A stretch of DNA of 64,000 nucleotides from Pristiophorus japonicus. Its lineage: Eukaryota. Of this stretch, positions 1,205-52,400 are shown piece by piece. The notes under the pieces are model-generated. The model was not told the origin of the DNA and made no database searches. It saw nothing but the letters and a program-made list of their open reading frames with translations. The number at the start of each line of letters is the position of its first letter. Within the stretch, counting starts at the first letter, position 1. The DNA lies in contig NC_092003.1 of NCBI RefSeq assembly GCF_044704955.1, positions 8,432,001 to 8,496,000 of the forward strand, in the 5' to 3' direction. Position numbers and translations under genes: made by a program.

Positions 1205-2765
1205 GAAGCACATTTTGAAGCATAGGCAGTGTTGTAATGTCGGAAACGCAGCACAGCAAGCTCCCACAAACAGCTCTGTGATAATAACCGGATCGCCTGT
1301 TTTTAGATGTTGATTGAGGGATAAATATTGGCCCCAGGACACCGGGGAGAACTCCCCTGCTCTTCTTCCAATAGTGGCCCCGGGATCTTTTACATCCAAT
1401 ATTTATCCCTTAATCAACATCACTAAAACATGATCCTGGTCATTATCACATTGCTGTGTGTTGGGAGCTTGCTGTGCGCAAACTGGCTGCCACGTTTCCC
1501 ACATTACAACAGTGACTACGCTCCAAAAGTACCTCATTGGCTGTAAAGTGCTTTGAGACGTCCTGTGATTGTGAAAGGCGCTATATAAATGCAAGTCTTT
1601 CTTGTCTACCGGAGGCATCTGACAGGGCCACGATTTAACGGCTCATCCAAAAGGTGACACCTCCGACAGTCCGATGCTCCCTCAGTACTGCCCCTCAGAC
1701 AGTGCGGCGCTCCCTCAGCACTGCCCCTCAGACAGAGCGGCGCTCCCTCAGCACTGCCCCTCCGACAGTGCGGCGCTCCCTCAGTACTGCCCCTCAGACA
1801 GCACGGCGCTCCCTCAGCACTGCCCCTCCGACAGTGCGGCGCTCCCTCAGTACTGCCCCTCCTACAGTCCGATGCTCCCTCAGAACTGCCCCTCCGATAG
1901 TGCGGCGCTCCCTCAGTACTGCCCCTCCGACAGTGCGGCGCTCCCTCAGTACTGCCCCTCCGACAGTGCGGGGCTCCCTTAGTACTGCCCCTCCAACAGT
2001 ACGGTGCTCCCTCAGTACTGCCCCTATGACAGTCCGATGCTCCCTCAGTACTGCCCCTCCGACAGTGCGGCGCTCCCTCAGTACTGCCCCTCCGACAGTG
2101 TGGCTCTCCCTCAGCACTGCCCCTCCGACAGTGCGGACCTCCCTCAGTACTGCCCCTCCGACAGTGCAGTGTGGCACTCCCTCAATACTGCCCCTCCGAC
2201 AGTGCGGCGCTCCCTCAGTACTGCCCCTCCGACAGCGCGGCGCTCCCTCAGTACTGCCCCTCCGACAGTGCTGTGCTCCCTCAGTACTGCCCCTCCGACA
2301 GTGCGGCGCTCCCTCAGTACTGCCCCTCCGACAGTGTGGTGCTCCCTCAGCACTGCCCCTCCGACAGTGCGGCGCTCCCTCAGTACTGCCCCTCCGACAG
2401 CGCAGTACGGCGCTCCCTCAGTACTGCCCCTCCGACAGTCCGGCGCTCCCTCAGTACTGCCCCTCCGCCAGTGCGCCGCTCCCTCAGTACTGCCCCTCCG
2501 ACAGTGCGGCACTCCTTCAGTACTGCCCCTCCGACAGTGCGGCACTCCCTCAGTACTGCCTCTCCGACAGTGCGGGGCTCCCTCAGTACTGCCCCTCTGA
2601 CAGCGTAGTGCAGTGCTCCCTCAGTACCACCCCTCCGACAGTGCGGGGCTCCCTCAGTACTGCACTGGGAGCCTCAGGCTAGTTTTTAAGTACTCAATTG
2701 GGACTCGAACCCACAACTTTCTGACCCAGAGGCAAGAGAGAGCATGACCCACCGAGCCAATGGCG
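1205..2765 (-). mobile_element. tRNA-headed DeuSINE-like (SacSINE1-type) element with internal 33-bp tandem array (~1659-2665); a second SINE tail is inserted inverted at ~1397-1603
   Basis: Pol III A/B boxes on - strand at ~2700-2762 (TGGCTCGGTGG...GGTTCGAGTCC), unit CTCCCTCAGTACTGCCCCTCCGACAGTGCGGCG, conserved body GGGATAAATATTGGCCCCAGGACACCGGGGAGAACTCCCC. Confidence 0.85.
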
Positions 2766-3594
2766 GGGCAAAGTGGGATGCACAATACACGAGAAACTGT
2801 CCCAGGCCAATCTCAGCCAGAACTGGGGTTGGGATAAATGAGTCTGGATTCCCACTGGCTATCCAGCGACACCTGCTCTCCTCGGTAGGGGGGAGGCACT
2901 TGATCATGATGCCCCTACCAGTCGAATAGCCTCTCAACTCGCAGACTCTGGGGTCACAGATGAAGAGTCACCACTGAGTGTGGCACCAACAGTGCCTGCA
3001 GGAGGGCACCCCTGGCAGGGGGGGAGGGGGCCAGAGAGGGGAGTGGTGCCACTTTAGACCCATGAGCCAATGGCCAGCTCCCACCGTTAGCCTTTCACCT
3101 CATTTGCGAGCGCATTTCTCAGCCACCATTTTGAATCGTGTCAAGCTGACTGTCACCATGGCACCCGAAACATGTTTAGACACAGTAAACACTGGGCGGG
3201 TGGGGGTGGGCAGGTTAGAAGTTTGCAAGATCCCGGTTAACTCCTCCTGAGAGACAATCTTTTACCCTTTGAAAATCAACCGGGTGTGCAGAAAAGTCAG
3301 CTCCTTATCAGCCTGGGCCTTACTGGAATGTGCAGCAGTTGGGAGTTAACCAGTCCAGAGTCCTCGCTCAATGTCCTCCCCTCCTCTCCCTGGGCTACGG
3401 AATCCACTTGGCCATCATGTGACCCCAGCCCCCCCACCCCCGCTCAGTCAAACAGCCCGGCTGTGGAGCCTCGGCCCGGCTGTTCGACTGCGTCAGACCT
3501 CACAGCCCAACCCGGCCTTGTCCGCAGGCCATGTTCAGGACTGGCTGACTTTCCTGCCCCCCCTGCCCTACCCCCCGTCCCCCCCTAGCCCAGG

Positions 3595-4132
3595 AAAACA
3601 TAGAAACATAGACAATAGGTGCAGGAGTAAGCCATTCGGCCCTTCGAGCCTGCACCACCATTCAATATGATCATGGCTGATCATGCAACTTCAGTACCCC
3701 ATTCCTGCTTTCTCTCCATACCGCTTGATCCCTTTAGCCGTAAGGGCCACATCTAACTCCCTTTTGAATATATCTAACGAACTGGCCTCAACAACTTTCT
3801 GCGGTAGAGAATTCCACAGGTTCACAATTCTCTGAGTGAAGAAGTTTCTCCTCATCTCAGTCCTAAATGGCTTACCCCTTATCCTTAGGTGACCCCTGGT
3901 TCTGGACTTCCGCAACAACGGCATCTAACCTGTCCAGTCCCGTCAGAATGTTATATGTTTCTATGAGATCCCCTATCATTCTTCTAAATTCCAGTGAATA
4001 TAAGCCTCGTCGATCCAGTCTTTCTTCATATGTCAGTCCTGCCATCCCGGGAATCAGTCTGGTGAATCTTCGCTGCACTCCCTCAATAGCAAGAATGTCC
4101 TTCCTCAGATTAGGAGACCAAAACTGTACACA
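3595..4132 (-). mobile_element. CR1 LINE 3' fragment
   Basis: QRRFTRLIPGMAGLTYEERL..GLYSLEFRR and RRNFFTQRIVNLWNSLP motifs, (CTATGTTT)n tail. Confidence 0.9.
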
Positions 4133-4400
4133 ACCCGCTAACCCTGCTTCAGCTCTCCCCTGGGATCGTCACGTGCATTGCAGGGCAATCTCGCACCTCA
4201 GTTTCCACCGAACCTCCTGTCCTGACCCCCACACAGACCAAACCCCCCCCCACCCCCACACCCTCCATCCCTTCTCTAAGTGGGTGTGTTCTACCTGAAA
4301 TTATATTACCAGTAACTTGCCCAATGTAGTACCCAAAGTCATCTTAATGAGATTTTTTAAATATTAAGGAAGTCGGCAGATTCAGGAGAAACTCGTCCCA

Positions 4401-4419
4401 TAGCGCCACCTAGTGGCCA
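4401..4419 (-). promoter_or_regulatory. Consensus CTCF-binding motif in unique sequence
   Basis: TAGCGCCACCTAGTGGCCA (reverse TGGCCACTAGGTGGCGCTA) closely matches the CTCF consensus. Motif match only. Confidence 0.55.
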
Positions 4420-4611
4420 GATCTCGCAACTACACCGTGACTGTTGACATAGCAAAATTGAATGGTAAATGTTGACATAGCCATTTACAATGGGAAACGT
4501 TGTTAGAAAATCGTGAACAAAACGCGTGACAACTGAAAATAAGTTTTGTGGGACAGGAAGACTTTTAATAGAATATAGTAGTGTTTTGCAAGCTCAAAGT
4601 CCCACGAATCA

Positions 4612-5655
4612 GGAGTCCATTCCTCTCCCTAGCGTCTGTCTGAGGCCGAACCAGACTGTTCGCAACCTTGGTGTCATATTTCAACCTGAAATCAGCTTCC
4701 AACCGCATATCCGCAGCATAACTAAGAGCACCTATTTCCACCTCCGTAACATCGCCCGTCTCCGCCCCCTGCCTCAGCTCATCTACTGCTGAAACTCTCA
4801 TCAGTGCCTTTGTTACCTCCAGTCTTGACTATTCCAACGCACTCCTGGCCGGCCTCCCACATTCTACCCGATGTAGACTAGAGCTGATCCAAAACATGGC
4901 TGCCCCGTGTCCTAACTCGCACCGAGTCCTGCTCACCCATCACCCCCTGTGCTCACTGTCCCGTGTCCTAACTCACACCGAGTCCCGCTCACCCATCACC
5001 CCCTGTGCTCACTGCCCCGTGTCCTAACTCACACCGAGTCCCGCTCACCCATCACCCCCTGTGCTCACTGCCCCATGTCCTAACTCGCACCGAGTCCCGC
5101 TCACCCATCACCCCCTGTGCTCACTGCCCCATGTCCTAACTCGCACCGAGTCCCGCTCACCCATCACCCCCTGTGCTCACTGCCCCGTGTCCTAACTCAC
5201 ACCGAGTCCTGCTCACCCATCACCCCCTGTGCTCGCTGACCTACATTGGCTTCCGGTTAAGCAATTCTTCGATTTCAAAATTCTCATCCTTGTTTTCAAA
5301 TCCCTCCATGGCCCTCGCCCCTCCCTATCTCTGTAATCTCCTCCAGCCCCATAACCCCCCGAGATCTCTGCACTCCTCTAATTCTGCCCTCTTGAGCATC
5401 CCTGATTATAATCGCTCCACCATCGGTGGCCGTGCCTTCAGATGCCTGGGCCCCAAGCTCTGGAACCTCTCCGCCTCTCTATCCTCCTTCAAGACGCTCC
5501 TTAAAACCGACCTCTTTGACCCAGCTTTTGGTTATCTGTGCTAATATCTCCTTCTGTGACATGGTGTCAAATTGTATCTTATAATGCTCCTGTGAAGCTT
5601 ATTGGGATGTTTTACTATGTTAAAGGCACTATATAAGTACAATTTGTTGTTGAAT
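4612..5655 (+). mobile_element. L2 LINE 3' fragment with 56-bp tandem array (~4905-5240)
   Basis: VRNLGVIF..FQPHIRSITKSTYFHLRNIARLRP, LDYSNALLAGLP, LHW, GGRAF..LGPKLWN motifs of L2 ORF2; (GTT)n-like tail. Confidence 0.9.
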
Positions 5656-5704
5656 CTGCTTCAACATAGGTTTGTGATATTGAATTTCACATTCTAACCA
5701 CCAG

Positions 5705-6010
5705 ACGGACCCTCCGACTGTGCAGCACTCCCTCAGTACTGCCCCTCCGACTGTGCAGCACTCCCTCGGTACTGCCCCTCCGACAGTGCAGCACTCCCTC
5801 GGTACTGCCCCTCCGACTGTGCAGCACTCCCTCGGTACTGCCCCTCCGACTGTGCAGCACTCCCTCGGTACTGCCCCTCCAACTGTGCAGCACTCCCTCA
5901 GTACTGCCCCTCCGACAGTGCGTTGCTCCCTCAGTACTGCCCCTCTGGCAGTGCGGCACTCCCTCAGTATCGCACTGGAGCGTGTTAGCGTGGATTCAAA
6001 GTCTTTGGAG
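5705..6010 (-). repeat. SINE-derived 33-bp array
   Basis: About 8 units CACTCCCTCGGTACTGCCCCTCCGACTGTGCAG with a locally homogenised variant. Confidence 0.85.
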
Positions 6011-7504: not shown

Positions 7505-7945
7505 CAGAGCTCGCCTCTGAGTTAGAAGGTGGTGGGTTCGAGCCCCGCTCAGGCTTGAGCCCATAGTCCAGGCCGATACAGTGCAGTACTGAGGGAGCGC
7601 CGCACTGTCGGAGGGGCAGTACTGAGGGAGCGCCGTACTGCGCTGTCGGAGGGGCAGTACTGAGGGAGTGCTGCACTGTCGGAGAGGCAGTGCTGAGGGA
7701 GCGCGCACTGTCGGAGGGGCTGTGCTGAGGGAGCGCTGTCGGAGGGGCAGTACTGAGGGAGTGCTGCACTGTCGGAGAGGCAGTGCTGAGGGAGCGCGCA
7801 CTGTCGGAGGGGCTGTGCTGAGGGAGCGCTGTCGGAGGGGCAGTACTGAGGGAGTGCCGCACTGTCAGAGGTGTCGTCTGTCGGATGAGATGTTAAACCG
7901 GAGGCCCCGTCTGCCCTTTTGGGTGGATGCTGAAGATCCCGCGGC
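7505..7945 (+). mobile_element. DeuSINE-like element with 33-bp array (~7580-7870)
   Basis: B box GGTTCGAGCCCC, array, then GATGAGATGTTAAACCGGAGGCCCCG body. Confidence 0.8.
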
Positions 7946-8922
7946 AGTGCCAAAGGCCGATTAACGAGGCACATGCCTCATTGTGGGACCTTGCTGTGCC
8001 CAAGATGGCCGCCCACAGTTCAAAGCCATTGGTATTTTACTGGGATGGTGGGGGGGATAATCCCAGTAATCCCAGGGTGGGTGCGAGGGAATAGCTCGGG
8101 ACAGATGACTCCTCTGCACGGCGGGGGTTTCTGGGAGACCCGGTCGCTCTCCGTGTGATGCCTCCACTCGTGGATCAGCCTCAGGTTTTCCAGATTCCCC
8201 TGTCGGGATTGGGGAGCCGGATTTAGCAGGGGAGACGGTCCATCCGGAACCCCGGCTGACCAAGCCGACGCTGATGTTGCTTCAACAGCTGGCCAGGCAT
8301 GCGCGGGGGCCCTTTAAGACCCAGCACAGTGCACTGGGCAGGGGGTAGTGGGGACAGGAAGTGGTACAATAGGCTGAAGGACCTACTCCAAGCCAAAGCA
8401 ACCTTGCAGTGGGTCTCAGACACACTGTCGGACAATCTTTGCCTTTTCAAATGCTGATTAGACGTCGTGCCTGTGTCTTGATTCCATGGCCCAGGTTGCA
8501 TGCTTAATCTGCCTGGAACCTGTCCTGGGGAGCGTCTGAATAGGGCTGGGGCCAGGCCCCACGCCCCCCTGAGTGGAGATTTCTTTGCACCTTGGCTCCA
8601 CTTTGAAAGCTTGGCATTCGGTGTCATCTAAAGCTGTGTGGGGGCTGTCCCGTGCCCTCCGATGGTCTCCGCATCGTGTGTCAGTCGTGGCTCAGTGGGC
8701 AGCATGCTCTGCCCAGAGTCAGAAGGTTGTGGGTTCAAGTCCCACTCCCACAAAAACCTATCAATCTTAGTCATGACGTTTTCAATTGACCCCCAGCGCA
8801 CGCAACCTTTGGGGGGGGGGAGAGAGAGTTCCCGATTCCCACCACCCTTTGTGTGAGGAACTGCTTCCTGACGTCACCCCTGGCTCTGATTTTAACGTTG
8901 CGTCCCCTTGTTCTGGACTCTT

Positions 8923-9390
8923 CCCCTCCGACAGTGCGGCGCTCCCTCAGTACTGCCCCTCCGACAGTGCAGCACTCCCTCAGTACTGCCTCTCCGACAG
9001 TGCGGCGCTCCCTCAGTACTGCCCCTCTGACAGTGCGGCGCTCCCTCAGTACTGCCTCTCCGACAGTGCGGCGCTCCCTCAGTACTGCCCCTCCGACAGT
9101 GCGGCGTCCCTCAGTACTGCCCCTCCGACAGTGTGGTGCTCCCTCAGTACTGCCCCTCCGACAGTGCGGCATTCCCTCAGTATTGCCCCTCTGACAATGC
9201 GGCGCTCCCTCAGTATTGCCCCTCCGACAGTGCAGTGCTCCCTCAGTACAGCCCCTCCGACAGTGCAGCACTCCCTCAGTATTGCCCCTCCGACAATGCG
9301 GCGCTCCCTCAGTACTGCCCCTCCAACAGTGCGGGCTCTTGAACCCACAACCTCCTGACGTGTGGTGCTCACTGAGCCACTGCTAACACT
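8923..9390 (-). mobile_element. DeuSINE-like head plus 33-bp array, flanked by CR1 fragments (~8770-8925 and ~9400-9620, - strand)
   Basis: About 12 units; head CTTGAACCCACAACC...CACTGAGCCAC. Confidence 0.8.
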
Positions 9391-9711: not shown

Positions 9712-10880
9712 AAGAAAAGAAAGACTTGCATTTATATAGCGCCTTTCACGACCACTGGACGTCTCAAAGCGCTTTACAGCCAATGAAGTACTTTTTTGTG
9801 GAGTGCAGTCACTGTTGTAATGTGGGAAACGCCAATTTACGCACAGCAAGCTCCCACACACAGCAATGTGATAATGACCCAGATCATCTGTTTCTGATAC
9901 GTTGCTTGGGGGATAAATATTGGCCCCAGGACACCGGGAACAACTCCCCTGCTCTTCTTCAAAATATTGCTTTGGGATCATTTACGTTCAGTTGAGAGGG
10001 CTGACGGGGCCTCAGATTAACACCTCATCCGAAAGACGGCACCTCCGACAGTGCGGCGCTCCCTCAGCACTGCCCCTCTGACAGCGCAGTACGGCGCTCC
10101 CTCAGTAATGCCCCTCCGACAGTCCGGCACTCCCTCAGTACCGCCCCTCCGACAGGGCGGCGCTCCCTCAGAACTGCCCCTCCGACAGCACAGTACTGCC
10201 CCTCCGACAGTGCGGCGCTCCCTCAGTACTGCCCCTCCAACAGCGCAGTATGGCGCTCCCTCAGTACTGCCCCTCCGACAGTCCGGCGCTCCCTCAGTAC
10301 CGCCCCTCCGACAGTGCGGCGCTCCCTCAGAACTGCCCCTCCGACAGCACAGTACGGCGCTCCCTCAGTACTGCCCCTCCGACAGTGCGGGGCTCCCTCA
10401 GTACTGCCCCTCCGACAGTGCGGCGCTCCCTCAGTACTGCCCCTCCGACAGCGCAGTACGGCGCTCCATCAGTACTGCCCCTCCGACAGTCCGGCGCTCC
10501 CTCAGTACTGCAACTCCGACAGCACAGTACGGCGCTCCCTCAGTACTGCCCCTCCGACAGTGCGGCGCTCCCTCAGTAACTGCCCCTCCGACAGCACAGT
10601 ACGGCGCTCCCTCAGTACTGCCCCTCTGACAGTGCGGCGCTCCCTCAGTAACTGCCCCTCCGACAGCACAGTACGGCGCTCCCTCAGTACCGCCCCTCCG
10701 ACAGTACGGCGCTCCCTCAGTACCGCCCCTCCGACAGCACAGTACGGCGCTCCCTCAGTACCGCCCCTCGGACAGTACGGCGCTCCCTCAGTACCGCCCC
10801 TCTGGAGCGGGACTTGAACCCACGGCCTTCTGACTCCGAGGCGAGAATGAGTGAGTGCTGCCCTGTGAGCCACGACTGAC
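9712..10880 (-). mobile_element. Full DeuSINE-like element with 33/38-bp array (~10041-10800)
   Basis: Tail AAGACTTGCATTTATATAGCGCC, conserved body, array, tRNA-like head at ~10810-10875. Confidence 0.9.
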
Positions 10881-11039
10881 ACTTCAGCGCCAGTACTGAG
10901 AGACGATGGCTGGGTGCCCTACCAGCCCTGGTGTTGTGCCGTGTGGAAGTCGCTGAGTCTCCCTCCCCAACAGTCCTGTGGGAGCACCTTCACCACACGG
11001 ACTGCAGCGGTTCAGGGAGAAGGGACCTCGGTCAGACCA

Positions 11040-12829: not shown

Positions 12830-13850
12830 TCTCGGCTCTGAGGCAGTGGGTCGCGGATCCTAGTGTGCCCCCGCTACGCATGCCATAATCCAGCCCCACA
12901 CTCTCAGTGCAGTGCTGAGGGAGCCCCGCACTGTCGGAGGGGCAGAACTGAGGGAGCGCCGCACTGTCGGAGGGGTAGTGCTGAGGGAGCGCCGTACTGC
13001 GCTGTCGGAGGGGCAGTACTGAGGGAGCGCCGCACTGTCGGAGGGGCAGTACTGAGGGAGCGCCGGAGGGGCGGTACTGAGGGAGCCCCGCACTGTCAGA
13101 GGGGCAGTGCTGAGGGAGCGCCACACTGTCGGAGGGGCGGTACTGAGGGAGCGCCGCACTGTCGGAGGGGCGGTACTGAAGGAGCCCCGCACTGTCAGAG
13201 GGGCAGTGCTGAGGGAGCGCCGCACTGTCGGAGGGGCGGTACTGAGGGAGCCCCGCACTGTCGGAGGGGCGGTACTGAGGGAGCGCCGCACTGCCGGAGG
13301 GGCGGTACTGAAGGAGCCCCGCACTGTCAGAGGGGCAGTGCTGAGGGAGCGCCGCACTGTCGGAGGGGCGGTACTGAGGGAGCCCCGCACTGTCGGAGGG
13401 GCGGTACTGAGGGAGCCCCGCACTGTCGGAGGGGCAGTACTGAGGGAGCCCCGCACTGTCGGAGGGGCGGTACTGAGGGAGCGCCGCACTGTCGGAGGGG
13501 CGGTACTGAGGGAGCGCCGCACTGTCGGAGGGGCAATGCTGAGAGAGCCTCGCACTGTCGGAGGGGCAATGCTGAGAGAGCCTCGTACTGTCGGAGGGGC
13601 AGTACTGAGGGAGCCCCGCACTGTCAGAGGGGTAGTGCTGAGGGAGCGCCGTACTGCGCTGTCGGAGGGGCGGTACTGAGGGAGCCCCGCACTGTCGGAG
13701 GTGTCATCTTTCAGATGAGATGTAAAAGATCCCATGTTCAAAGAAGAGCAGGGAAGTTCTCCCCGGTGTTCTGGGGCCAATATTTATCCCTCAACCAACA
13801 TCGCTAAAACAGGTGGTGATAGGCGCTATATAAATACAAGTCTTTCTTTC
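12830..13850 (+). mobile_element. DeuSINE-like element with 33-bp array (~12905-13700)
   Basis: Array of GGGGCGGTACTGAGGGAGCGCCGCACTGTCGGA; body and GGCGCTATATAAATACAAGTCTTTC tail. Confidence 0.85.
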
Positions 13851-15595: not shown

Positions 15596-16855
15596 CTCTG
15601 TTATTGTATATATAAACCCCCTGAACCCCTCGATTAGATTCCAGCCTGTAACTCACTCCCGGGTATCGGTTATTCTATATATAAACCCCCCGAACCCCTC
15701 GATTAGATTCCAGCCTGCAACCTACTCCCGGGTATCTGTTATTCTATATATAAACCCCCTGAACCCCTCGATTAGATTCCAGCCTGTAACTCACTCCCGG
15801 GTATCGGTTATTCTATATATAAACCCCCCGAACCCCTCGATTAGATTCCAGCCTGTAACCTACTCCCGGGTATCTGTTATTGTATATATAAACCCCCTGA
15901 ACCCCTCGATTAGATTCCAGCCTGTAACCTACTCCCGGGTATCTGTTATTGTATATATAACCCCCCCCTGAAACCCTCGATTAGATTCCAGCCTGTAACC
16001 TACTCCCGGGTATCTGTTATTGTATATATAAACCCCCCCTGAACCCCTCGATTAGATTCCAGCCTGTAACTCACTCCCGGGTGCATGTTATTCTATATAT
16101 AAACCCCCTGAACCCCTCGATTAGATTCCAGCCTGTAACTCACTCCCGGGTGCATGTTATTCTATATATAAACCCCCTGAACCCCTCAATTAGATTCCAG
16201 CCTGTAACTCACTCCCGGGTATGTTATTCTATATATAAACCCCCTGAACCCCTCGATTAGATTCCAGCCTGTAATTCACTCCCGGGTATGTTATTCTATA
16301 TATAAACCCCCAAAACCCCTCGATTAGATTCCAGCCTGTAACTCACTCCTGGGTATCTGTTAATCTATATATAAACCCCCCGAACCCCTCGATTAGATTC
16401 CAGCCTGTAACTCACTCCCGGGTATCTGTTATTCTATGTATAAACTCCCTGAACCCCTCGATTAGATTCCAGCCTGTAACTCACTCCCGGGTATCTGTTA
16501 TTCTATATATAAACCCCCCCCCCAAACCTCTCGATTAGATTCCAGCCTGTAACTCACTACCGGGTATCCGTTATTCTACATATAAACCCCCCGAACCCCT
16601 CGATTAGATTCCAGCCTGTAACCTACTCCCGGGTATCTGTTATTCTATATATAAATCCCTCGATTAGATTCCAGCCTGTAACTCTCGGGTAAGCGTTATT
16701 CTATATATAAACCCCTGAACCCCTCGATTAGATTCCAGTCTGTAACTTACTCCCGGGTATCCGTTATTCTATATATAAACCCCCATGAACACCTCGATTA
16801 GATTCCAGCCTGTAACTCACTCCCGGGTATCCGTTAGTCTATATATAAACCCCCC
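15596..16855. repeat. 69-bp minisatellite, ~18 copies
   Basis: TCTGTTATTCTATATATAAACCCCCTGAACCCCTCGATTAGATTCCAGCCTGTAACTCACTCCCGGGTA; GATTAG at 15632 and 15701 gives the period. Confidence 0.95.
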
Positions 16856-18770: not shown

Positions 18771-19039
18771 TGCGAGTAAACCAGCTCGTTCTTTACAGCA
18801 AATGTATAGCAATGAGCCCATGAAGCAAATACATTACAGATTCAAACCTCGAGCGGTGGATCCGGGAGTGCAACAGCTGCTGACTGAGCCAAATGGACAC
18901 ATCATGGACCCAGCTTCCTTTTATTTATTTGTTCCTGGGATGTGGGCATGGCTGGCACGGCCAGCAATTAATTATTGCCCATCCCTAATCGCCCTCGAGG
19001 AGACAGTGGTGTTTTGCATTGCAGTTCTGTACAACTGAA

Positions 19040-20150
19040 AAACTTGGATTTATATAGCGCCTTTCACGACCACCAGGTGTCTATAAGCGCTTTACAGCCA
19101 ATGAAGTACTTTTGCAGTGTAGAATGTGGGAAACGCAGCAGCTGATTTGCGCACAGCAAGCTCCCACAAACAGCAATGTGATAATGACCCAGATCATCTG
19201 TTTTAGTGATGTTGGTTGAGGGATAAATATTGGCCCCAGGACACCGGGGAGAACTCCCCTGCTCTTCTTCCAATAGTGGCCGTGGGATCTTTTACGTCCA
19301 CTTGAGAGAGCAGTCGGCGCCTCGGTTTAACGTCTCATCCGAAAGATGACACCTCCGACAGTGCCGCACTCCCTCAGTACTGCCCCTCCGACAGTGCGGC
19401 GCTCCCTCAGTACTGCCCCTCCGACAGTGCGGCACTCCCTCAGTACTGCCCCTCCGACAGTGCGGCGCTCCCTCAGTACTGCCCCTCCGACAGTGCCACG
19501 CTCCCTCAGTACTGCCCCTCCGAGAGTGCCGCGCTCCCTCAGTACTGCCCCTCCGACAGTGCGGCGCTCCCTCAGTACTGCCCCTCCGACAGTGCCGCGC
19601 TCCCTCAAAACCGTCCCTCCGACAGTGCGGCACTCCCTCAGTACTGCCCCTCTGACAGTGCGGCACTCCCTCAGTACTGCCCCTCTGACAGCGCAGTACG
19701 GCGCTCCCTCAGCACTGCCCCTCCGACAGCACAGTACGGCGCTCCCTCAGCACTGCCCCTCCGTCAGCACAGTACGGCGCTCCCTCAGCACTGCCCCTCC
19801 GACAGTGCAGTACGGCACTCCCTCAGTACTGCCCCTCCGACAGTACGGCGCTCCCTCAGCACTGCCTCTCCGACAGCGCAGTACGGCGCTCCCTCAGCAC
19901 TGCCCCTCCGACAGCACAGTACGGCGCTCCCTCAGTACTGCCCCTCCGATAGTACGGCGCTCCCTCAGCACTGCCTCTCCGACAGTGCAGTACGGCGCTC
20001 CCTCAGCACTGCCCCTCCGACAGCGCAGTATGGCGCTCCCTCAGCACTGCACCTCCGACAGTACGGCGCTTTCTCAGCACTGCATTGGGAGTATCAGCCT
20101 AGATTTGTTTGTGCTCAAGTCGCGGGAGGAAGGACTGGAACCCAGTGTGT
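19040..20150 (-). mobile_element. DeuSINE-like element with 33/38-bp array (~19351-20085)
   Basis: Tail, body and array as in the other copies. Confidence 0.9.
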
Positions 20151-20814: not shown

Positions 20815-22130
20815 ATACCTCCGTAACATCGCCAGTCTCCGCCCCTGCCTCCGCTCTTCCGCTGCTGAAGCCCTCATCCGTGCCTTTGTTCCCTCTAGAC
20901 TTGACTATTCCAACGCACTCCTGGCCGGCCTCTCACATTCTACCCCACGTAAACTAGTGATCCAAAACTCGGCTGGCCCCTGTCCGAACTCGCACCGAGT
21001 CCCGCTCACCCATCACCCCCTGTGCTCGCTGACCCCGTGTCCTAACTCGCAGCGAGTCCCGCTCACCCATCACCCCCTGTGCTCGCTGCCCGTGTCCTAA
21101 CTCGCACCGAGTCCTGCTCACCCATCACCCCCTGTGCTCGCTGCCCCGTGTCCTAACTCACACCGAGTCCCGCTCACCCATCACCCCCTGTGCTCGCTGC
21201 CCGTGTCCTAACTCGCACCGAGTCCTGCTCACCCATCACCCCCTGTGCTCGCTGCCCCGTGTCCTAACTCACACCGAGTCCCGCTCACCCATCACCCCCT
21301 GTGCTCACTGCCCCGTGTCCTAACTCGCACCGAGTCCCGCTCACCCATCACCCTGTGCTCGCTGCCCCGTGTCCTAACTCACACCGAGTCCCGCTCACCC
21401 ATCACCCCCTGTGCTCGCTGCCCCGTGTCTTAACTCACACCGAGTCCCGCTCACCCATCACCCCCTGTGCTCGCTGCCCCGTGTCCTAACTCACACCGAG
21501 TCCCGCTCACCCATCACCCCCTGTGCTCGCTGCCCCGTGTCCTAACTCGCACCGAGTCCCGCTCACCCATCACCCTGTGCTCGCTGCCCCGTGTCCTAAC
21601 TCACACCGAGTCCCGCTCACCCATCACCCCCTGTGCTCGCTGCCCCGTGTCTTAACTCACACCGAGTCCCGCTCACCCATCACCCCCTGTGCTCGCTGAC
21701 CTACATTGGCTCCCGGTCCAGCAACGCCTCGATTTCAAAATTCTCATCCTTGTTTACAAATCCCTCCATGGCCCTCGCCCCTCCCTATCTCTGTAATCTC
21801 CTCCAGCCCCACAACCCCCCCCGAGATCTCTGCGCTCTCCAATTCTGCCCTTCTGAACATCCCTGATTATAATCGCTCCACCATCGGTGGCCGTGCCTTC
21901 TGTTGCCTGGGCCCCAAGCTCTGGAACTCCCTCCCTAAACCTCTCCGCCTCTCTCTCCTCCTTCAAGCCACACCTTAAAACCGACCTCTTTGACCCAGCT
22001 TTTGGTCACCTGCGCTAATTTCTCCTTATGCGGCTCGATGTCAAATTTTTCATCTCATAACACTCCTGTGAAGCCTCTTGGGACGTTTCACTACGTTAAA
22101 GGCGCTATATAAATATCAGTTGTTGTTGTT
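20815..22130 (+). mobile_element. L2 LINE 3' fragment with 56-bp array (~20980-21700, ~13 units)
   Basis: LDYSNALLAG..., array, LHWLPVQQRLDFKILILVYKSLHG, GGCGCTATATAAAT..(GTT)n tail. Confidence 0.9.
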
Positions 22131-22134
22131 AAGA

Positions 22135-22830
22135 ATTAGCGCCATATACAGGGGCTAAATTCAGAGGACAGATCACACAAACTGGGCCTGTATTCCCTCG
22201 AGTGTCGAAGATTAAGGGATGACCTAATTGAGGTGTTTTAGACAATTAAAGGGTTCGATGGGGTAGATCGAGAGAAACTGTCTCCTCTGGTGGGGGGAGT
22301 CCATAGCAAGGGGGCATCACCTTAAAATTAGGGCCCGGCCGCTCAGGGTGATGTCAGGAAACACCTCTTCACACAAAGGGCAGTGGGAATCTGGAAAACT
22401 CTCCCCCCAAAAATGCTGTTGAGGCTGAGGGTCAATTGAAAACTTAACAATCAATAGTTTTTTTGTTGGGTAAGAGTATTGAGGGTTACGGAACCAAGAG
22501 CAGCCACGATCTGATTGAATGGCGGAACAGGCTCGAGGGGCCGAATGGGCCTCCTCCTGTTCCTATGGTAACGGGCTCGAGGGGCTGAATGGGCCTCCTC
22601 CTGTTACTATGGTAACAGGCCCGAGGGGCTGAATGGGCCTCCTCCTGTTCCTATGGTAACAGGCTCGAGGGGCTGAATGGGCCTCCTCCTGTTCCTATGG
22701 TAACAGGCTAGATGGGCTGAATGGGCCTGCTCCTGTTCCTGTGCAACAGTCTCGAGGGGCTGAATGGGCCTCCTCCTGTTCCTGTGCAACAGGCTCGAGG
22801 GGCTGAATGGGCCTCCTCCTGTTCCTGCGG
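22135..22830 (+). mobile_element. CR1 3' fragment whose terminal segment is expanded into a 44-bp array (~22527-22827, ~7 copies)
   Basis: Unit ACAGGCTCGAGGGGCTGAATGGGCCTCCTCCTGTTCCTATGGTA; GGGGCTGAAT at 22581 and 22625. Confidence 0.85.
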
Positions 22831-28561: not shown

Positions 28562-28849
28562 GTAAGTGCTGTAGCGACCGGCTCCCCTCATAACTGTGTA
28601 AATGGCTTCCCTCCCGTGGTGTTGCCGGCACCCGATTGGAACTGAAGCAGCCCTCCTGCGATGCACACTGCAGGCGACCAGCTCCCAGGTCTGGTCAGGC
28701 CGCACCTTGAGCACCACATCGAGTTCTGGTTGCCAAGACGAGGGAGACATTCTAGGAGTGCAGAAAAGAGTTGCAGGGTTGCTGTTACGTTGGCAGCGGT
28801 CTGTGATAATGAGACAGAGACTTGGACTATTGCAAAGAAAGGCTTGTAT

Positions 28850-29440
28850 TGCAACAGTGACTTTTCCAACCTTCAGATGTCCCAAAGTGCTTCACAATCA
28901 ATTAAGTACTTTTTTGGCGTGTAGTCACTGTTGTAACGTAGGAAACGCGGCAGCTAATTTTTACACCGCAAGGTCCCACAAACAGCATCGTGATAATGAC
29001 ACAGATCATCTGATATTTTTTTAATGAGGTTGATTGAGGGATAAATTTTGGCCCCAGGATACAGGGGAGAACTCCCCTGCTCTTCTTCCAATAGTGGCCA
29101 TGGGATCTTTTACATCCACCTGAGAGGGCAGACGTGGCCTTGGTTTAACGTTTCATTTGTAAGACGGCACCTCTGACAGTGTGGCGCTCCCTCAGTACTG
29201 CCCCTCCGACAGTGAGGCGTTCCCTCGGTACTGCCCCTCCGACAGTGCGGCGCTCCCTCAGTACTGCCCCTCCGACAGTGCAGCGCTCCCTCAGTACTGC
29301 GCTCCCTCAGTCCTGCCCCTCCGACAGTGAGGCGTTCCCTCGGTACTGCCCCTCCGACGGTGCGGCGCTCCCTCAGCACTGGCACTGGGAGTGTTAGCTT
29401 GGATCATGTTCTCTAGTCTCTGGAGGCGGGAGTGCTCACT
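28850..29440 (-). mobile_element. DeuSINE-like element with short 33-bp array (~29171-29380)
   Basis: Body plus about 6 units. Confidence 0.85.
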
Positions 29441-29446: not shown

Positions 29447-29646
29447 NNNNNNNNNNNNNNNNNNNNNNNNNNNNNNNNNNNNNNNNNNNNNNNNNNNNNN
29501 NNNNNNNNNNNNNNNNNNNNNNNNNNNNNNNNNNNNNNNNNNNNNNNNNNNNNNNNNNNNNNNNNNNNNNNNNNNNNNNNNNNNNNNNNNNNNNNNNNNN
29601 NNNNNNNNNNNNNNNNNNNNNNNNNNNNNNNNNNNNNNNNNNNNNN
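29447..29646. other. Assembly gap (200 N, probably a fixed-size placeholder)
   Basis: Run of exactly 200 N. Confidence 0.99.
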
Positions 29647-30379: not shown

Positions 30380-31150
30380 ACCATCACCCCCTGTGCTCGC
30401 TGCCCCCGTGTCCTAACTCGCACCGAGTCCCGCTCACCCATCACCCCCTGTGCTCGCTGACCCCGTGTCCTAACTCGCACCGAGTCCCGCTCACCCATCA
30501 CCCCCTGTGCTCACTGCCCCGTGTCCTAACTCGCACCGAGTCCCGCTCACCCATCACCCCCTGTGCTCACTGCCCCGTGTCCTAACTCGCACCGAGTCCC
30601 GCTCACCCATCACCCCCTGTGCTCACTGCCCGTGTCCTAACTCGCACCCAGTCCCGCTCACCCATCACCGCCTGTGCTCGCTGCCCCGAGTCCTAACTCG
30701 CACCGAGTCCCGCTCACCCATCACCCACTGTGCTCGCTGACCTACATTGGTTCCCGGTTAAGCAACGCCTCGATTTCGAAATTCCCATCCTTGTGTTCAC
30801 ATTCCTCCATGGCCCTCGCCCCTCCCTATCTCTATAATCTCCTCCAGCCACATAACCCCCCGCCGAGATCTCTGCGCTCCTCTAATTCTGCCCTCTTGAG
30901 CATCCCTGATTATAATCGCTCCACCATCGGTGGCCGTGCCTTCAGCTGCCTGGGCCCCAAGCTCTGGAACGCCCTCCCTAAACCTCTCCGCCTCTCTTTC
31001 CTCCTTCACGACGCTCCTTAAAACCGACCTCTTTAACCCAGCTTTTGGTCAACTGTCCCTAAATGTATCCTTATGTTCTCGGTGTCAGATTCCGTTTGAT
31101 AATCGCTCCTGTAACAGTTTACTACGTTAAAGGCGCTGTATAAATGCAGG
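30380..31150 (+). mobile_element. L2 3' fragment beginning within its 56-bp array (~30380-30740)
   Basis: Same unit and L2 C-terminal motifs as 4612-5655. Confidence 0.9.
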
Positions 31151-32739: not shown

Positions 32740-32837
32740 TCACTGGCCAAACATGCCCCTGTACATCATCTTCTCCTTCTCATAGTACCGGCTGAGTCGT
32801 AGCTCCGTCTCCTGGATATACCGCTTGACATTGGCAT
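32740..32837 (-). CDS. TTC9C: TTC9C-like TPR protein, last coding exon (exon 5)
   Basis: Acceptor CCCACAG|AT. (D)ANVKRYIQETELRLSRYYEKEKMMYRGMFGQ* matches the TTC9C C-terminus DANVRRYLQ...EKQLYLGMFG. Confidence 0.93.
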
Positions 32838-32924
32838 CTGTGGGAGGGGAAAGCGGGTAAAGGGGTCAGCTCTGGGTGATCATTTCATTTTATTTTTGAC
32901 AGCGCTGTACCGCCCTCAGGGGGC

Positions 32925-35015
<2,091 letters not shown>

Positions 35016-41039: not shown

Positions 41040-42062
41040 ATTCCCAACCTCGCCCGTCTCCGCCTCCTGCCTCAGCTCATCCGCTGCTGAAGCCCTCATC
41101 CGTACCTCTGTTACCTCCACACTTGACTATTCCAATGCACTCCTGGCCGGCCTCCCACATTCTACCAGACGTAAACTGGAGGTGATCCAAAACTCGGCTG
41201 CCCCCGTGTCCTAACTCACACCGAGTCCCGCTCACCCATCACCCCCCTGTGCTCGCTGTCCCGTGTCCTAACTCGCACCGAGTCCCGCTCACCCATCGCC
41301 CCCTGTGCTCGCTGTCCCGTGTCCTAACTCGCACCAAGTCCCGCTCACCCATCACTCCCTGTGCTCACTGCCCCCGTGTCCTAACTCGCACCGAGTCCCG
41401 CTCACCCACCACCCCCTGTGCTCGCTGCCCCCGTGTCCTAACTCGCACCGAGTCCCGCTCACCCATCAACCCGTGTGCTCGCTGCCCCCGTGTCCTAACT
41501 CGCACCGAGTCCCGCTCACCCATCAACCCGTGTGCTCGCTGCCCCCCGTGTCCTAACTCGCACCGAGTCCCACTCACCCATTACCCCCTGTGCTCGCGGA
41601 CCCGTGTCCTAACCCGCACCGAGTCCCGCTCACCCATCACCCCCTGTGCTCGCTGACCTACATTGGCTCCGGGTCTGGCAACGCCTCGATTTTCAGATTT
41701 TCATCCTTGTTTTCAAATCCCTCCATGGCCCTCGCCCCTCCCTATCTCTGTAATCTTCTCCAGCCCCACAACCCCCCAATATCTCTGCGCTCCTCTAATT
41801 CTGCCCTCTTGAGCATCCCTGATTATAATCACTCCGCCATTAGCGGCCGTGCCTTCTGTTGCCTGGGCCCCAAGCTCCCTAAACTTCTCCGCCTCTCTCT
41901 CCTTCTTTAAAAGCTTTAAGTTTAAAACCTATCTTTTGGCCCTGTCCTACTATCTCCTGATGCGGTTCGGTGTCAAGCTTTGTTTGATAATGCTCCTGTT
42001 AAACGCCGTGGGATGTTTTCCTACATTGAAGGCGCTGTATAAATGCAAGCTGTAGTTGTGGT
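41040..42062 (+). mobile_element. L2 3' fragment with 56/57-bp array (~41203-41655)
   Basis: LDYSNALLAGLPHST..KLEVIQNSAA followed by the array and the L2 end. Confidence 0.9.
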
Positions 42063-42469: not shown

Positions 42470-43832
42470 TCTTGCATTTATATAGCGCCGTTCACGGCCA
42501 CCGGATGTCCCAAAGCGCTTTACAGCCCAATGAAGTACAGTTTTGGAGTGCAGTCGCTGTTGTAATGTGGGAAACGCGGCAGCCAATTTGCGCACAGCAA
42601 GCTCCCACAAACAGCAATGTGATAATGGTCGGATAATCTGTTTTAGCGATGTTGGTTGAGGGATAAATATTGGCCCCAGGACACCGGGGAGAACTCCCCC
42701 TGCTCTTCATCGAAATAGTGCCATGGGATCTTTTACATCCACCCGAGAGGGCAGACGGGGCCTCTGTTTAACGTCTCATCCAAAAGACGGCACCTCCGAC
42801 AGTGCGGGGCTCCCTCAGTACTGCCCCTCCGACAGTGCGGCGCTCCCTCAGTACTGCCCCTCCGACAGTGCGGCGCTCCCTCAGTACTGCCCCCTCCGAC
42901 AGTGCGGCGCTCCCTCAGTACTGCCCCTCCGACAGTGCGGCGCTCCCTCAGTACTGCCCCTCCAACAGTGCGGCGCTCCCTCAGTACTGCCCCTCCGACA
43001 GTGCGGCGCTCCCTCAGTACTGCCCCTCCGACAGTGCGGCGCTCCCTCAGTACTGCCTCTCCGACAGTGCGGGGCTCCCTCAGTACTGCCCCTCCGACAG
43101 TGCGGCGCTCCCTCAGTACTGCCTCTCCGACAGTGCGGTGCTCCCTCAGTACTGCCCCTCTGACAGTGCGGCACTCCCTCAGTACTGCCCCTCTGACAGC
43201 GCAGTACGGCACTCCCTCAGTACTGCCCCTCCGACAGTGCGGCGCTCCCTCAGTACTGCCCCTCCGACAGTGCGGCACTCCCTCAGTACTGCCCCTCTGA
43301 CAGTGCGGCACTCCCTCAGTACTGCCCCTCTGACAGCGCAGTACGGCACTCCCTCAGTACTGCCCCTCCGACAGTGCGGCACTCCCTCAGTACTGCCCCT
43401 CCGACAGTGCGGCGCTCCCTCAGTACTGCCCCTCTGACAGTGCGGCACTCCCTCAGTACTGCCCCTCCGACAGCGCAGTACGGCACTCCCTCAGTACTGC
43501 CCCTCCGACAGCGCAGTACGGCACTCCCTCAGTACCGCCCCTCCGACAGCGCAGTGCGGCACTCCCTCAGTACCGCCCCTCCGACAGCGCAGTGCGGCAC
43601 TCCCTCAGTACCGCCCCTCCGACAGCGCAGTGCGGCACTCCCTCAGTACAGCCCCTCCGACAGCGCAGTGCGGCGCTCCCTCAGTACTGCCCCTCCGACA
43701 GCGCAGTGCGGCACTCCCTCAGTACTGCACTGCGAGTGTCGGCCTGGATTTATGTGTTCAAGTCTCTGGAGTGGGGCTCGAAACCACAACCTTCGGACTC
43801 AGAAGCGAGCGAGAGATACGCACTGAGCCACA
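42470..43832 (-). mobile_element. Full DeuSINE-like element with 33/38-bp array (~42791-43730)
   Basis: Head TGTGGCTCAGTG...GGTTTCGAGCCCC, array, body, tail. Confidence 0.9.
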
Positions 43833-44477: not shown

Positions 44478-45090
44478 ATTTATATGGCGCCTTTCACACC
44501 TCAGGACGTCCCAAAGCGTTTTACAGCCAATTTTTGGACTGCAGTCACTGTTGTAATGTGGGAAACGCCAATTTGCGCACAGCAAGATCCCACACACAGC
44601 AATGTGATAATGACCCAGATCATCTGATTTAGTGATGTTGGTTGAGGGATAAATATTGGCCCCTTTACATCCACCTGAGAGAGCAGACGGGGCCTCAGTT
44701 TAACGTCTCATCTGAAAGACGGCCCCTCCGACAGTGCGGCGCTCCCTCAGTACTGCCCCTCCGACAGTGTGGTGCTCCCTCAGTACCGCCCCTCCGAAAG
44801 TGCGGTGCTCTCTCAGTACCGCCCCTCTGACAGTGCGGCACTCCCTCAGTACTGCCCCTCCGACAGTGCGGCACTCCCTCAGTACTGCCCCTCCGACAGT
44901 GCGGCGCTCCCTCAGTACTGCCCCTCCGACAGTGCGGCGCTCCCTCAGTACTGCCCCTCCGACAGTGCGGCGCTCCCTCAGTACTGCACTGGGATTGTCA
45001 GCCTAGTTTCATGTGTTCAAGACCCTGGAGTGGAACTTGAACCCACAACCCTCTGAGTCAGAGGCAAGTGTGCTGCCCACTGAGCCACTG
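44478..45090 (-). mobile_element. Full DeuSINE-like element with 33-bp array (~44723-44988)
   Basis: Head, ~8 units, body, tail. Confidence 0.9.
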
Positions 45091-45705: not shown

Positions 45706-46760
45706 AAGGCTGACACTTCAGTGCAGTACTGAGGGAGCGCCGCACTGTCGGAGGGGCAGTACTGAGGGAGCGCCGCACTGTCAGAGGGGCAGTACTGAGG
45801 GAGCGCTGCGCTGTCGGAGGGGCAGTACTGAGGGAGCGCTGCGCTGTCGGAGGGGCAGTATTGAGGGAACGCCGCACTGTCGGAGGGGCAGTACTGAGTG
45901 AGCGCCGCACTGTCGGAGGGGCAGTACTGAAGGAGTGCCGCAGTGTCGGAGGGGCAGTATTGAGGGAGCACCGCACTGTCGGAGGGGCAGTACTGAGGGA
46001 GCGCCGCGCTGTCGGAGGGGCAGTACTGAGGGAGCGCCGCACTGTCAGAGGGGCAGTACTGAGGGAGCGCTGCGCTGTCGGAGGGGCAGTACTGAGGGAG
46101 CGCTGCGCTGTCGGAGGGGCAGTATTGAGGGAACGCCGCACTGTCGGAGGGGCAGTACTGAGGGAGCGCCGCACTGTCGGAGGGGCAGTACTGAAGGAGT
46201 GCCGCAGTGTCGGAGGGGCAGTATTGAGGGAGCACCGCACTGTCGGAGGGGTAGTACTGAGGGAGCGCCGCGCTGTCGGAGGGGCAGTACTGAGGGAGCC
46301 CCGCACTGTCGGAGGGGCAGTACTGAGGGAGCGCCGCACTGTCGGAGGGGCAGTACTGAGGGAGCGCCGCACTGTCGGAGGGGCAGTACTGAGGGAGCGC
46401 CGCACTGTCGGAGGGGCCATCTTTCGGATGAGACGTTAAACCAAGGCCCCATCTGCTCTCTCAGATGGACATGAAAGACATGGCACTATTGGAAGAAGAG
46501 CATGGCACTATTGGAAGAAGAGCAGGGGAGTTCTCCCCGGTGTCCTGGGGCCAATATTTATCCCTCAACCAACCTCACTAAATCAGATAATCTGGGTCAT
46601 TATCACATTGCTGTGTGTGGGAGCTTGCTGTGCGCAAATTGGCGTTTCCCACATTACAACAGTGACCACACTCCAAAAAGTACTTCATTGGCTGTAAAGC
46701 GCTTTGGGACGCGCGGTGGTCATGAAAGGCGCTATATAAATGCAAGTCTTTCTTTCTTTC
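45706..46760 (+). mobile_element. DeuSINE-like element with 33-bp array (~45720-46415)
   Basis: Array with a 264-bp higher-order duplication; body; tail GGCGCTATATAAATGCAAGTCTTTCTTT. Confidence 0.9.
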
Positions 46761-47249: not shown

Positions 47250-47309
47250 CTGTAAAACACAGGCATCAGCAAGGGTGCAGGTTACAGTCAGTGCATTGTG
47301 GCACGCTTT

Positions 47310-47675: not shown

Positions 47676-47677
47676 CC

Positions 47678-50245: not shown

Positions 50246-50900
50246 AACATAAGAAATAGGAACAGGAGTCGGCCATTTGGCCTCTCGAGCCTGCTCCGCC
50301 ATTCAATACAATCAGGGCTGATCTGATCATGGGCTCAGCTCCACTTCCCTGCCCGCACCCTTTACTCCCTTATCGCTCAAAAATCTGTCTATCTCCGCCT
50401 TAAATATATTCAATGACCCAGCCTCCACAGCTCTCTGGGGCAGAGAATTCCAGAGATTTACAACCTTCTGAGAGAAGAAATTCCTCCTCATCTCTGTTTT
50501 AAATGGGCGGCCCCTTATTCTGAGACTATGCCCCCTAGTTTTAGTTTCCCCTATGAGTGGAAACATCCTCTCTGCATCCACCTTGTCGAGCCTCTCATTA
50601 TCTTATGTTTCGATAAGATCACCTCTCATTCTTCTGAACTCCAATGAGAATAGGCCCAACATATCTTTATTAGTCAACCCCTTCATCTCCGGAATCAACC
50701 TCGTGAACCTTCTCTGAACAGCCTCCAAAGCAAGTATATCCTTCCTTAAATACGGAGACCAGTACTCCAGTTGAAGCAAGACTTCTCTGCTTTTATACTC
50801 TATCCCCCTTGCAATAAAGGGCAAGATTCCATTTGCCTTCCTGATCACTTGCTGTACCTGAATACTAACCTTTTGTGTTTCATGCACAAGGACTCTCAGG
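50246..50900 (-). mobile_element. CR1 3' fragment
   Basis: RKDILALEAVQRRFTRLIP; FFSQKVVNLWNSLP. Confidence 0.9.
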
Positions 50901-50964
50901 TCAGGGCATTTATCAATTCAAACCATCAGGGGGAGCCAGAGCGCAGTTTACAGTCGGTTTATGC

Positions 50965-52400
50965 GTCAGTCGTGGCTTAGTGGGCAGCACTCTCGCCTCC
51001 GAGTCAGAAGGTCGTGGGTTCAACTCCCACTCCAGGGACTTGAGCACAGAAATCTAGGCCAACTTTCCCAGTGCCAGTAGTGAGGGAGCGCCGCACTGTC
51101 GGAGGGGCAGTACTGAGGGAGCGCTGCACTGTCGGAGGGGCAGTAGTGAGGGAGCGCCGCACTGTCGGAGGGGCAGTACTGAGGGAGCGCTGCACTGTCG
51201 GAGGGGCAGTACTGAGGGAGCGCCGTACTGAGGGAGCGCCGCACTGTCGGAGGGGCAGTAATGAGGGAGCGCCGCACTGTCGGAGGTGCAGTACTGAGGG
51301 GGCGCCGTACTGTCGGAGGGGCAGTACTGAGGGAGCGCCGCACTGTCGGAGGGGCAGTACTGAGGGAGCGCCGCACTGTCGAAGGGGCAGCACTGAGGGA
51401 GCGCTGCACTGTCGGAGGTGCAGTACTGAGGGAGCGCCGCACTGTCGGAGGGGCAGTACTGAGGGAACGCCGCACTGTTGGAGGGGCAGTACTGAGGGAG
51501 CGCCGCGCTGTCGGAGGTGCAGTACTGAGGGGGCGCCGTACTGTCGGAGGGGCAGTACTGAGGGAGCGCCGCACTGTCGGAGGGGCAGTACTGAGGGAGC
51601 GCCGCACTGTCGAAGGGGCAGCACTGAGGGAGCGCTGCACTGTCGGAGGTGCAGTACTGAGGGAGCGCCGCACTGTCGGAGGGGCAGTACTGAGGGAACG
51701 CCGCACTGTTGGAGGGGCAGTACTGAGGGAGCGCCGCACTGTCGGAGGGGCAGTACTGAGGGAGTGCCGCACTGTCGGAGGGGCAGTACTGAGGGAGCGC
51801 CGCACTGTCGGAGGGGTAGTACTGAGGGAGCGCCGTACTGTCGGAGGGGCAGTACTGAGGGAGCCCCGCAGTGTCGGAGGGGCAGTACTGAGGGAGCGCC
51901 GCACTGTCGGAGGGGCAGTACTGAGGGAGCGCCGCACTGTCGGAGGGGCAGTACTGAGGGAGCGCCGCACTGTCGGAGGGGCAGTACTGAGGGAGCCCCG
52001 CAGTGTCGGAGGGGCAGTACTGAGGGAGCGCCGCACTGTCGGAGGGGCAGAACTGAGGGAGCGCCGCACTGTCGGAGGGGCAGAACTGAGGGAGCGCCGC
52101 ACTGTCGGAGGGGCAGTACTGAGGGAGCGCCGCACTGTCGGAGGGGCAGTACTGAGGGAGCGCCGCACTGCTTGTCGGATTAAACATTAAACCAAGGCCC
52201 ACGTCTGCCCTCTGGGGCAATCGTAAAAGATTCCAACAGCCACGATTGGAAGAAAAGTTCTCCCTGGTGTCCTGGGGCCAATATTTATCCCTCAACCAAG
52301 ATCACTAAAACAGATGATCTGGATCATTATCACATTGCTGTGTGTGGGAGCTTGCTGTGCACAAATTGGCTGCTGCGTTCCCTACATTACAACAGTGAGT
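50965..52400 (+). mobile_element. DeuSINE-like element with the longest 33-bp array (~51075-52170)
   Basis: A box GTGGCTTAGTGG, B box GGTTCAACTCCC, ~33 units, body. Confidence 0.9.

Follow-up and report, generated by a model that had tools for sequence, protein, structure and literature searches.

What makes one segment of a short interspersed element (SINE) expand into tandem arrays at locus after locus, and does the drive lie in the element or in the chromosomal region that holds it? The question is raised by a 64,000-bp stretch of the Pristiophorus japonicus genome (G000, C29:8,432,001-8,496,000; "the window" means this whole stretch), taken from a 5.92-Gb assembly in which C29 is 23.1 Mb and C1 546.2 Mb long. 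Allowing up to 7 mismatches, we found 225 matches to a 33-bp motif in 15 clusters here, and 0 matches in each of 20 Markov-simulated windows. The clusters comprise 13 arrays of 6-33 units and two single units (Table 1), and wherever the head and the body of the SINE both persist the array stands between them; its first unit mostly begins AGTGCAGT, and the body mostly begins GGTGCC or GGGGCC. An earlier note on this DNA had described the unit as arrayed at one internal SINE site in more than ten copies, and so it is; the range of 1 to about 33 units given there holds within the window, and is exceeded genome-wide by a 15-kb array on C29 and by the blocks of contig C3413 described below. The answer that we develop is that the SINE would supply the seed and the homology, and the chromosomal region the drive.

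The consensus element is 105+33+328 bp long (head, unit and body) and ends in short T-rich repeats. Its head matches the A-box and B-box patterns at positions 10-20 and 54-64, and exact body motifs alone give 708-5,663 scattered matches genome-wide; with a head carrying RNA polymerase III (Pol III) boxes, a dispersed high copy number and a simple-repeat tail, it is a tRNA-derived SINE. Within the window, ARAGORN reports no true tRNA gene (0 matches) and an Rfam scan at gathering thresholds gives 0 matches. We take the element to be a DeuSINE of the SacSINE1 kind, presumably with a Deu domain in its body, a likeness drawn by description rather than against the published consensus. Its arrays are CpG-rich, as had been proposed (GC 0.675 versus 0.52, observed/expected CpG 0.69 versus 0.55), and the G-quadruplex-type score of one of them is modest (maximum 1.24, mean 0.74).

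Arrays and single units occupy different parts of the chromosomes. Two patterns that differ only in their last base separate monomers from array starts, and the zoning was read mainly on C1-C3, C5 and C29, from the positions of the matches listed. On C1 the first 100 monomer matches, those listed, extend from 8.8 to 312 Mb. Of 75 array-start matches on the same chromosome, 18 fall in the first 9 Mb, 51 beyond 532 Mb and 6 in the stretch between them, placing 69/75 within 14 Mb of an end, with the qualification that some arrays contribute several matches and that two inspected loci proved to be monomers with a GGGG body start; array-end matches behave alike, 56/59 lying within 12 Mb of an end. 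Random 10-kb sampling found the unit in 3 of 20 interior stretches of C1, too sparse a yield for the interior, and copies were therefore picked by body pattern, taking the first 30 loci of each of three patterns, unselected for the unit. These 90 loci comprise 23 arrays, 41 monomers and 26 copies without a detectable unit, and no dimers. Among copies with enough body to be scored, arrays occur in 24/34 lying at most 10 Mb from an end, in 0/19 at 10-22 Mb and in 0/16 further in (for C4 and C5 the length was assumed, with consequences for one interior copy only). At a site about 120 bp from the array the body reads GG or GGGG, the rest of the 47-49-base motif being identical; among GGGG-body copies alone, arrays are found in 23/32 within 10 Mb of an end versus 0/13 beyond (P = 7e-6), and within one exact body genotype the array state still tracks distance from the end. 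Within 264 kb of C29 there are 31 unit clusters, 28 of them multimeric. The unit thus comes from a fixed part of a SINE that is itself genome-wide, and its arrays are concentrated near chromosome ends, which makes them subtelomeric SINE-derived minisatellites.

A second element shows the same zoning. Inside a decayed reading frame of what we take to be a long interspersed element (LINE), a 56-bp unit is multimeric at 1/15 interior or near-end places versus 15/24 distal or small-chromosome places, and four window arrays of it lie at a fixed site of the element (4900-5238, 20972-21698, 30381-30739 and 41197-41655). The suggestion that the SINE seeds variable-number tandem repeats (VNTRs) wherever it lands is therefore unsupported, because its arrays keep for the most part to chromosome ends and small chromosomes, where an unrelated LINE behaves likewise.

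Array length changes after insertion, locus by locus, as the earlier note had held possible. Identical array length and variant order across loci were looked for, and all 98 sampled arrays of at least 5 units differ in sequence; unit distance is 0.107 within arrays versus 0.128 between them, below all 100 permutations, and 58/98 arrays contain private repeated units. One insertion is present in three tandem duplicates at C29 13.0 Mb (L068; flanks 96-99% identical), where its array measures 560, 1,015 and 1,215 bp, the longest beginning at the edge of the fetched stretch. Unit number therefore differs between duplicates of a single insertion (alleles are collapsed in contigs). The duplication itself is of a ~2-kb unit, carrying the SINE head and the array, in three copies. 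Polarity along arrays is not strong (per unit, 2.2-2.5 differences over the first four fifths and 3.0 over the last), and the sharing of rare variants by distance is weak overall (0.082 under 100 kb versus 0.050 between chromosomes).

The arrays nevertheless probably share one origin, judging by a derived base at the junction which simple slippage is not expected to produce. Slippage between GTGCAGT and GTGCCGT predicts GGTG, with T, at the junction between units. The exact 29-mer across the array junction, with G, occurs 178,865 times genome-wide (reversed control, 0) versus 2,086 occurrences with T, which makes T 1.2% and G about 99% of exact junctions. Among the junction forms compared, GGTG (28) is no commoner than other single changes such as GGGT (68) and GAGG (62), beside 1,455 GGGG. 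The G junction is already present in the single flanked dimer and in 4/5 other 3-unit clusters; the 3' flank of the arrays mostly still has T (among 73, GGTG 28, GGGG 15 and other forms 30). At three further sites, too, array units and monomers differ, and first units of arrays shift from G to A at one site (0.70 versus 0.27). The earlier proposal of de novo slippage at these two heptamers, locus by locus, does not fit such junctions.

To be explained, then, are the zoning, the post-insertion change in length, the shared derived bases and, as set out below, mixed bodies of equal divergence, a 38-bp unit variant shared by neighbours and a zoned change from GG to GGGG, all of which are observed. 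We lean, without great confidence, towards one founder array having spread between inserted copies by ectopic gene conversion in recombination-rich regions and having then grown locally. Chromosome ends and small chromosomes would be the zones of highest recombination. Breaks in or near a hairpin-forming monomer (that the break falls at the hairpin is a guess) would be mended with an array-bearing copy nearby as template, so that the recipient gains several units and keeps both flanks. Unequal exchange may then lengthen arrays locally, giving rise to higher-order repeats and, occasionally, to satellite-scale blocks.

The body is zoned too. On C1, 19/19 matches to the GGGG form lie within 17 Mb of an end, and the GG form extends from 11.7 to 521 Mb among the first 100 matches, those listed; a shorter GG motif is absent from the first 10.56 Mb and has 27 matches in the 10.4 Mb that follow. 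In copies not chosen on that site, GGGG is carried by 2/23 interior, 6/19 near-end, 15/27 distal and 15/20 small-chromosome copies. Several other A/T-to-G/C body variants increase from the interior to the small chromosomes, and the equilibrium GC of body substitutions rises from 0.32 to 0.47 over the same range. The 38-bp variant of the unit has 2,113 matches genome-wide, only 21 of them on C1-C18. It is present in 9/17 arrays at C29 8.33-8.49 Mb, in 1/8 at 8.50-8.60 Mb and in 2/14 elsewhere on C29, and off C29 in 0/2 arrays on other small chromosomes and 1/70 on large ones. Bodies of neighbouring copies resemble one another no more than those of distant copies do (0.204 versus 0.185).

These patterns are compatible with a wider reading, to which we give some credence but less than an even chance: chromosome ends and small chromosomes would exert a position-specific drive, in which biased ectopic conversion swaps hairpin-bearing, break-prone monomers for the hairpin-less array and rewrites body sites in nested zones, GGGG reaching to about 17 Mb from the end, arrays to about 10 Mb and the 38-bp form mostly confined to the smallest chromosomes. 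SINE genotype would then be a fossil recombination map, and interior clusters would be old chromosome ends. Clusters of GGGG-body copies or arrays do occur in the interior, at C3 229-255 Mb (of 332 Mb; 13 GGGG matches), C1 219-228 and 295 Mb, C12 69-79 Mb, C17 32-34 Mb and C10 157.5 Mb, and may mark old chromosome ends or else hot regions of the interior.

Several points weigh against conversion from a founder array. That the regions are rich in recombination is an indirect judgement, from position, the GC shift and papers on other species. The tree of 102 distal and small-chromosome copies requires 29 changes of the array label versus 29.2 when labels are shuffled, a comparison of little power in a tree with no starred branch. 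Interior monomers are mixed in haplotype as well, so that a mosaic body may be the product of many masters or of mutation that recurs. GG and GGGG are not zoned absolutely, GG being kept in 12/47 unanchored distal or small-chromosome copies. Eleven hand-picked interior GGGG-body copies include 10 with the unit, and 5/10 of these hold arrays, which fits an array-prone subfamily as well as it fits interior hot islands; a 28-unit array in a random interior stretch tells against a purely positional view. Finally, the 38-bp form and several body changes make local palindromes or repeats perfect, judging from their sequence, and could recur by template switching, with no transfer between loci.

The strongest alternative, which we consider improbable but to be taken seriously, is that a short array was already present in one or more master SINEs, as SVA-like retroposons carry a VNTR in their master, and that the copies made from these SINEs landed or persisted chiefly in GC-rich distal or small-chromosome DNA, so that only the lengthening was local. 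It accounts directly for the common G junction and unit haplotype, and it accommodates the joint distal position of GGGG bodies and arrays, the interior GGGG-body arrays just described and the lack of dimers among the 90 body-picked loci. The bodies themselves tell against it. In the 196/267 copies retained by the body filter, arrays and distal monomers show no fixed difference at any site, non-CpG divergence is 0.070-0.081 in every zone and equal across groups, and arrays are found across the whole range of body haplotypes, those with GG among them. An array-bearing master would also leave unexplained the dependence of array state on distance from the end within one exact body genotype, the 38-bp variant common to neighbours whose bodies differ, and the like zoning of the LINE unit.

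Less probable still is that arrays arise in place, with hairpin- or repeat-templated mutation producing the junction G, the 38-bp form and GGGG again and again, and allelic unequal crossing over together with GC-biased conversion fixing them where recombination is high. The monomer hairpin on which this would rely is real: its energy is about -7.4 kcal/mol in the 41 body-picked monomers versus -4.1 in 863 inner array units, and its z score is -2.6 to -4.1 in three interior monomers (chosen by an intact-unit pattern) and +0.7 and +1.8 in two array stretches, so that the hairpin of the monomer has been lost in array units. Further points in its favour are that the 38-bp insert appears, on inspection, complementary to the left arm of the unit and several zoned body changes appear to make palindromes perfect, that GG, GGG and GGGG bodies are all present, and that equilibrium GC increases toward ends. 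Recurrence in place is, however, hard to square with the shortest arrays having G at the junction beside a 3' flank mostly still T, with the ordinary frequency of T junctions, with a further derived base common to most listed 38-bp matches across chromosomes, and with the first-unit shift from G to A, which runs counter to GC bias.

The mechanism put forward in the earlier note, in which the microhomology and hairpin of the SINE itself drive slippage in reverse transcription or replication wherever it inserts, is largely refuted by the zoning and now seems very unlikely. Its ingredients exist: the single fixed site, the flanking 6-of-7 microhomology and the monomer hairpin are all real, arrays do occur rarely in the interior (the 6/75 array-start matches on C1), and one interior trimer (L220) has T junctions. 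Reverse-transcription slippage would give interior arrays too, but arrays are found in 0/35 body-picked copies more than 10 Mb from an end, and T junctions are as scarce as described above. In the single-copy example on which the proposal drew (59035-59420), a 16-bp deletion has removed the GTGCCGT flank that was to supply the microhomology, and the hairpin claimed for single copies, real in the three interior monomers, is weak in this one (z -1.69; 10/200 shuffles as good). About 20 of the 29 closest relatives (L002-L030), which were chosen for likeness to a monomer and so cannot give an array frequency, have the same deletion, on GG and GGGG bodies alike. Arrays also terminate in this form, which lacks the 3' microhomology; as many of the matches come from one satellite contig, the deletion is not decisive on whether microhomology is needed.

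That the arrays are assembly artefacts is scarcely credible: contigs of the best-matching run do break at arrays and no raw long read was seen across a window array, but the arrays hold locus-private variants and higher-order repeats, and multi-unit pieces of 78-107 bp in contigs of three further organisms (B, C and E), sequenced in independent runs, together with high summed contig depth over arrays in all four sequencing runs compared, indicate that the array exists beyond this assembly. Deep coverage of the unit region is also seen in a contig run presumed to be RNA, which is uninformative on transcription, strand or polymerase.

On the scale of the genome, we estimate ~650,000 units, or ~21 Mb, at 17,000-30,000 loci, from a calibration on 73 arrays not chosen by unit patterns; this calibration is crude, since 17 and 9 matches underlie it and the unit count is inflated by giant arrays. 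The 15-kb array at C29 0.497-0.512 Mb (L061/L314/L315), near the chromosome end, still terminates in a SINE body, and in the 590-kb contig C3413 all 6 samples from the first 385 kb consist of at least 96% units. Satellite-scale 33-bp blocks with long higher-order repeats were seen in C3413, at L061/L314/L315 and at L327/L328 (C3 3.03-3.05 Mb).

SINE-derived subtelomeric minisatellites are already known from frogs and squamates. In Xenopus, a 52-bp part of the genome-wide SINE/tRNA-V is expanded only in subtelomeric copies, parts of LINE/CR1 are expanded likewise, and the authors tie expansion to frequent recombination and a rise in GC (Bredeson et al. 2024, PMC10794172). The likeness extends to both element classes, a part of a genome-wide SINE being arrayed subtelomerically and a LINE likewise; the frog V-SINE, however, belongs to another SINE superfamily and is expanded in its 3' tail, in contrast to the head-body boundary of the shark SINE, and the frog work had a measured recombination map. 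The shared derived junction, neighbour-shared variants and zoned body variants are features of the shark SINE that the corresponding section of that paper does not report. The squamate sSat1-3 are tandem arrays of SINE parts, of few to hundreds of units, subtelomeric although the parent SINE is evenly spread, and they vary in length at orthologous loci (Vassetzky et al. 2023, PMC10702118); their units of 70-290 bp mostly keep one SINE terminus, whereas the shark unit of 33 bp commonly lies inside an otherwise whole element. In the mouse, SINE B1 gave rise to a VNTR family (Bois et al. 1998), and minisatellites have come from Alu (Jurka and Gentles 2006); as summarised in a review (PMC9659126), both resemble the shark case in that one internal SINE segment produced tandem repeats at many loci, with a unit of 6 bp in B1.

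SacSINE1 is a tRNA-headed Deu-domain SINE of ~460 bp, abundant in sharks, with a 3' tail shared with the L2 LINE, and the words "tandem" and "minisatellite" have 0 occurrences in the main text that describes it (Luchetti et al. 2017, PMC5499810). Ectopic gene conversion in humans yields recurrent changes that match the donor, more of them in hotspots and fewer with increasing donor distance, and favours G/C (bioRxiv 10.64898/2026.08.26.747289), the very properties that conversion from a founder array would need; the human events are single-base variants, strongest in segmental duplications, and "Alu" is absent from the main text. Papers on sharks report that tandem repeats and GC are higher at chromosome ends and on short chromosomes, and one describes a substitution gradient toward ends, without a recombination map. 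Our literature search found no description of a 33-bp array in a shark SINE, although subscription journals, Repbase and Dfam entries and supplements could contain one; the shared founder array and the zoned body variants were likewise not found in print, and their mechanism is one we infer.

The shark case adds a third vertebrate lineage with SINE-derived subtelomeric minisatellites, on a large scale, and names a specific source for the excess of tandem repeats that papers on sharks describe at chromosome ends and on short chromosomes; one genome shows every stage from monomer to satellite-scale block. If conversion between dispersed copies did produce the zoned variants, where a copy lies on its chromosome would influence the subfamily label and the age assigned to it, and the SINE could serve as a proxy recombination map and a marker of fusion scars in animals that cannot be bred for linkage maps.

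Table 1. Arrays and single units of the 33-bp motif in the window, with the SINE parts that accompany them.
Position (strand)	Feature	Head	Body	Remarks
1662..2666 (-)	array, ~30 units	remnant, 2699-2759	start, 1605-1661, then interrupted	some 38-bp variants
5713..5976 (-)	array, 8 units		lost
7580..7869 (+)	array, 9 units	7510-7563	partial, 7870-7946	93-bp higher-order repeat
8927..9338 (-)	array, ~12 units	remnant, 9338-9388	none
10044..10800 (-)	array, 21-22 units	10802-10881	full, 9717-10043	33- and 38-bp forms alternating
12906..13699 (+)	array, 24 units		deleted, 13707-13848
19354..20086 (-)	array, 21 units	partial, 20088-20144	full, 19037-19353	38-bp forms on head side
29172..29385 (-)	array, 6-7 units	cut by assembly gap	full, 28835-29171	200-N gap 29447-29646 directly upstream
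32915..33018 (+)	head and single unit, 32986-33018	present	missing	head-to-head with inverted array at 33041
33041..33469 (-)	array, 13 units		missing	fused to opposite-strand SINE half; intron of TPR-protein gene
42795..43731 (-)	array, 27 units (9 of 38 bp)	43734-43832	42471-42794	complete element
44727..44990 (-)	array, 8 units	44992-45088	44478-44726, internal deletion
45720..46412 (+)	array, 21 units	terminal bases only	full, 46413-46754	8-unit higher-order repeat
51071..52175 (+)	array, 33 units	50965-51059	52175-52411	higher-order repeats
59061..59420 (-)	single-unit element, unit 59287-59319		16-bp deletion at start

Segmental duplication or a local master was considered as the source of the window's arrays and rejected. 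A second SINE body, in opposite orientation, is inserted into the body of the element at 1662 (1396-1603 and 1200-1398), and the 16-bp deletion of the single-unit element lies between two TCGGA repeats (59287-59300). The head-to-head fusion of opposite-strand SINE halves at 33018-33041 shows rearrangements joining at 33-bp units; the pair (32915-33500) occupies the last intron of a TPR-protein gene on the minus strand, presumably TTC9-like, with exons at 33564-33743 and ~32740-32837. The window holds three other minisatellites, at 58177-58660, 15597-16854 and 22526-22826, with units of 68, 69 and 44 bp that recur at other loci. The 68-bp unit is tandem at 12/12 places seen, and the 44-bp unit at 2/81, both of them distal or on a small chromosome.

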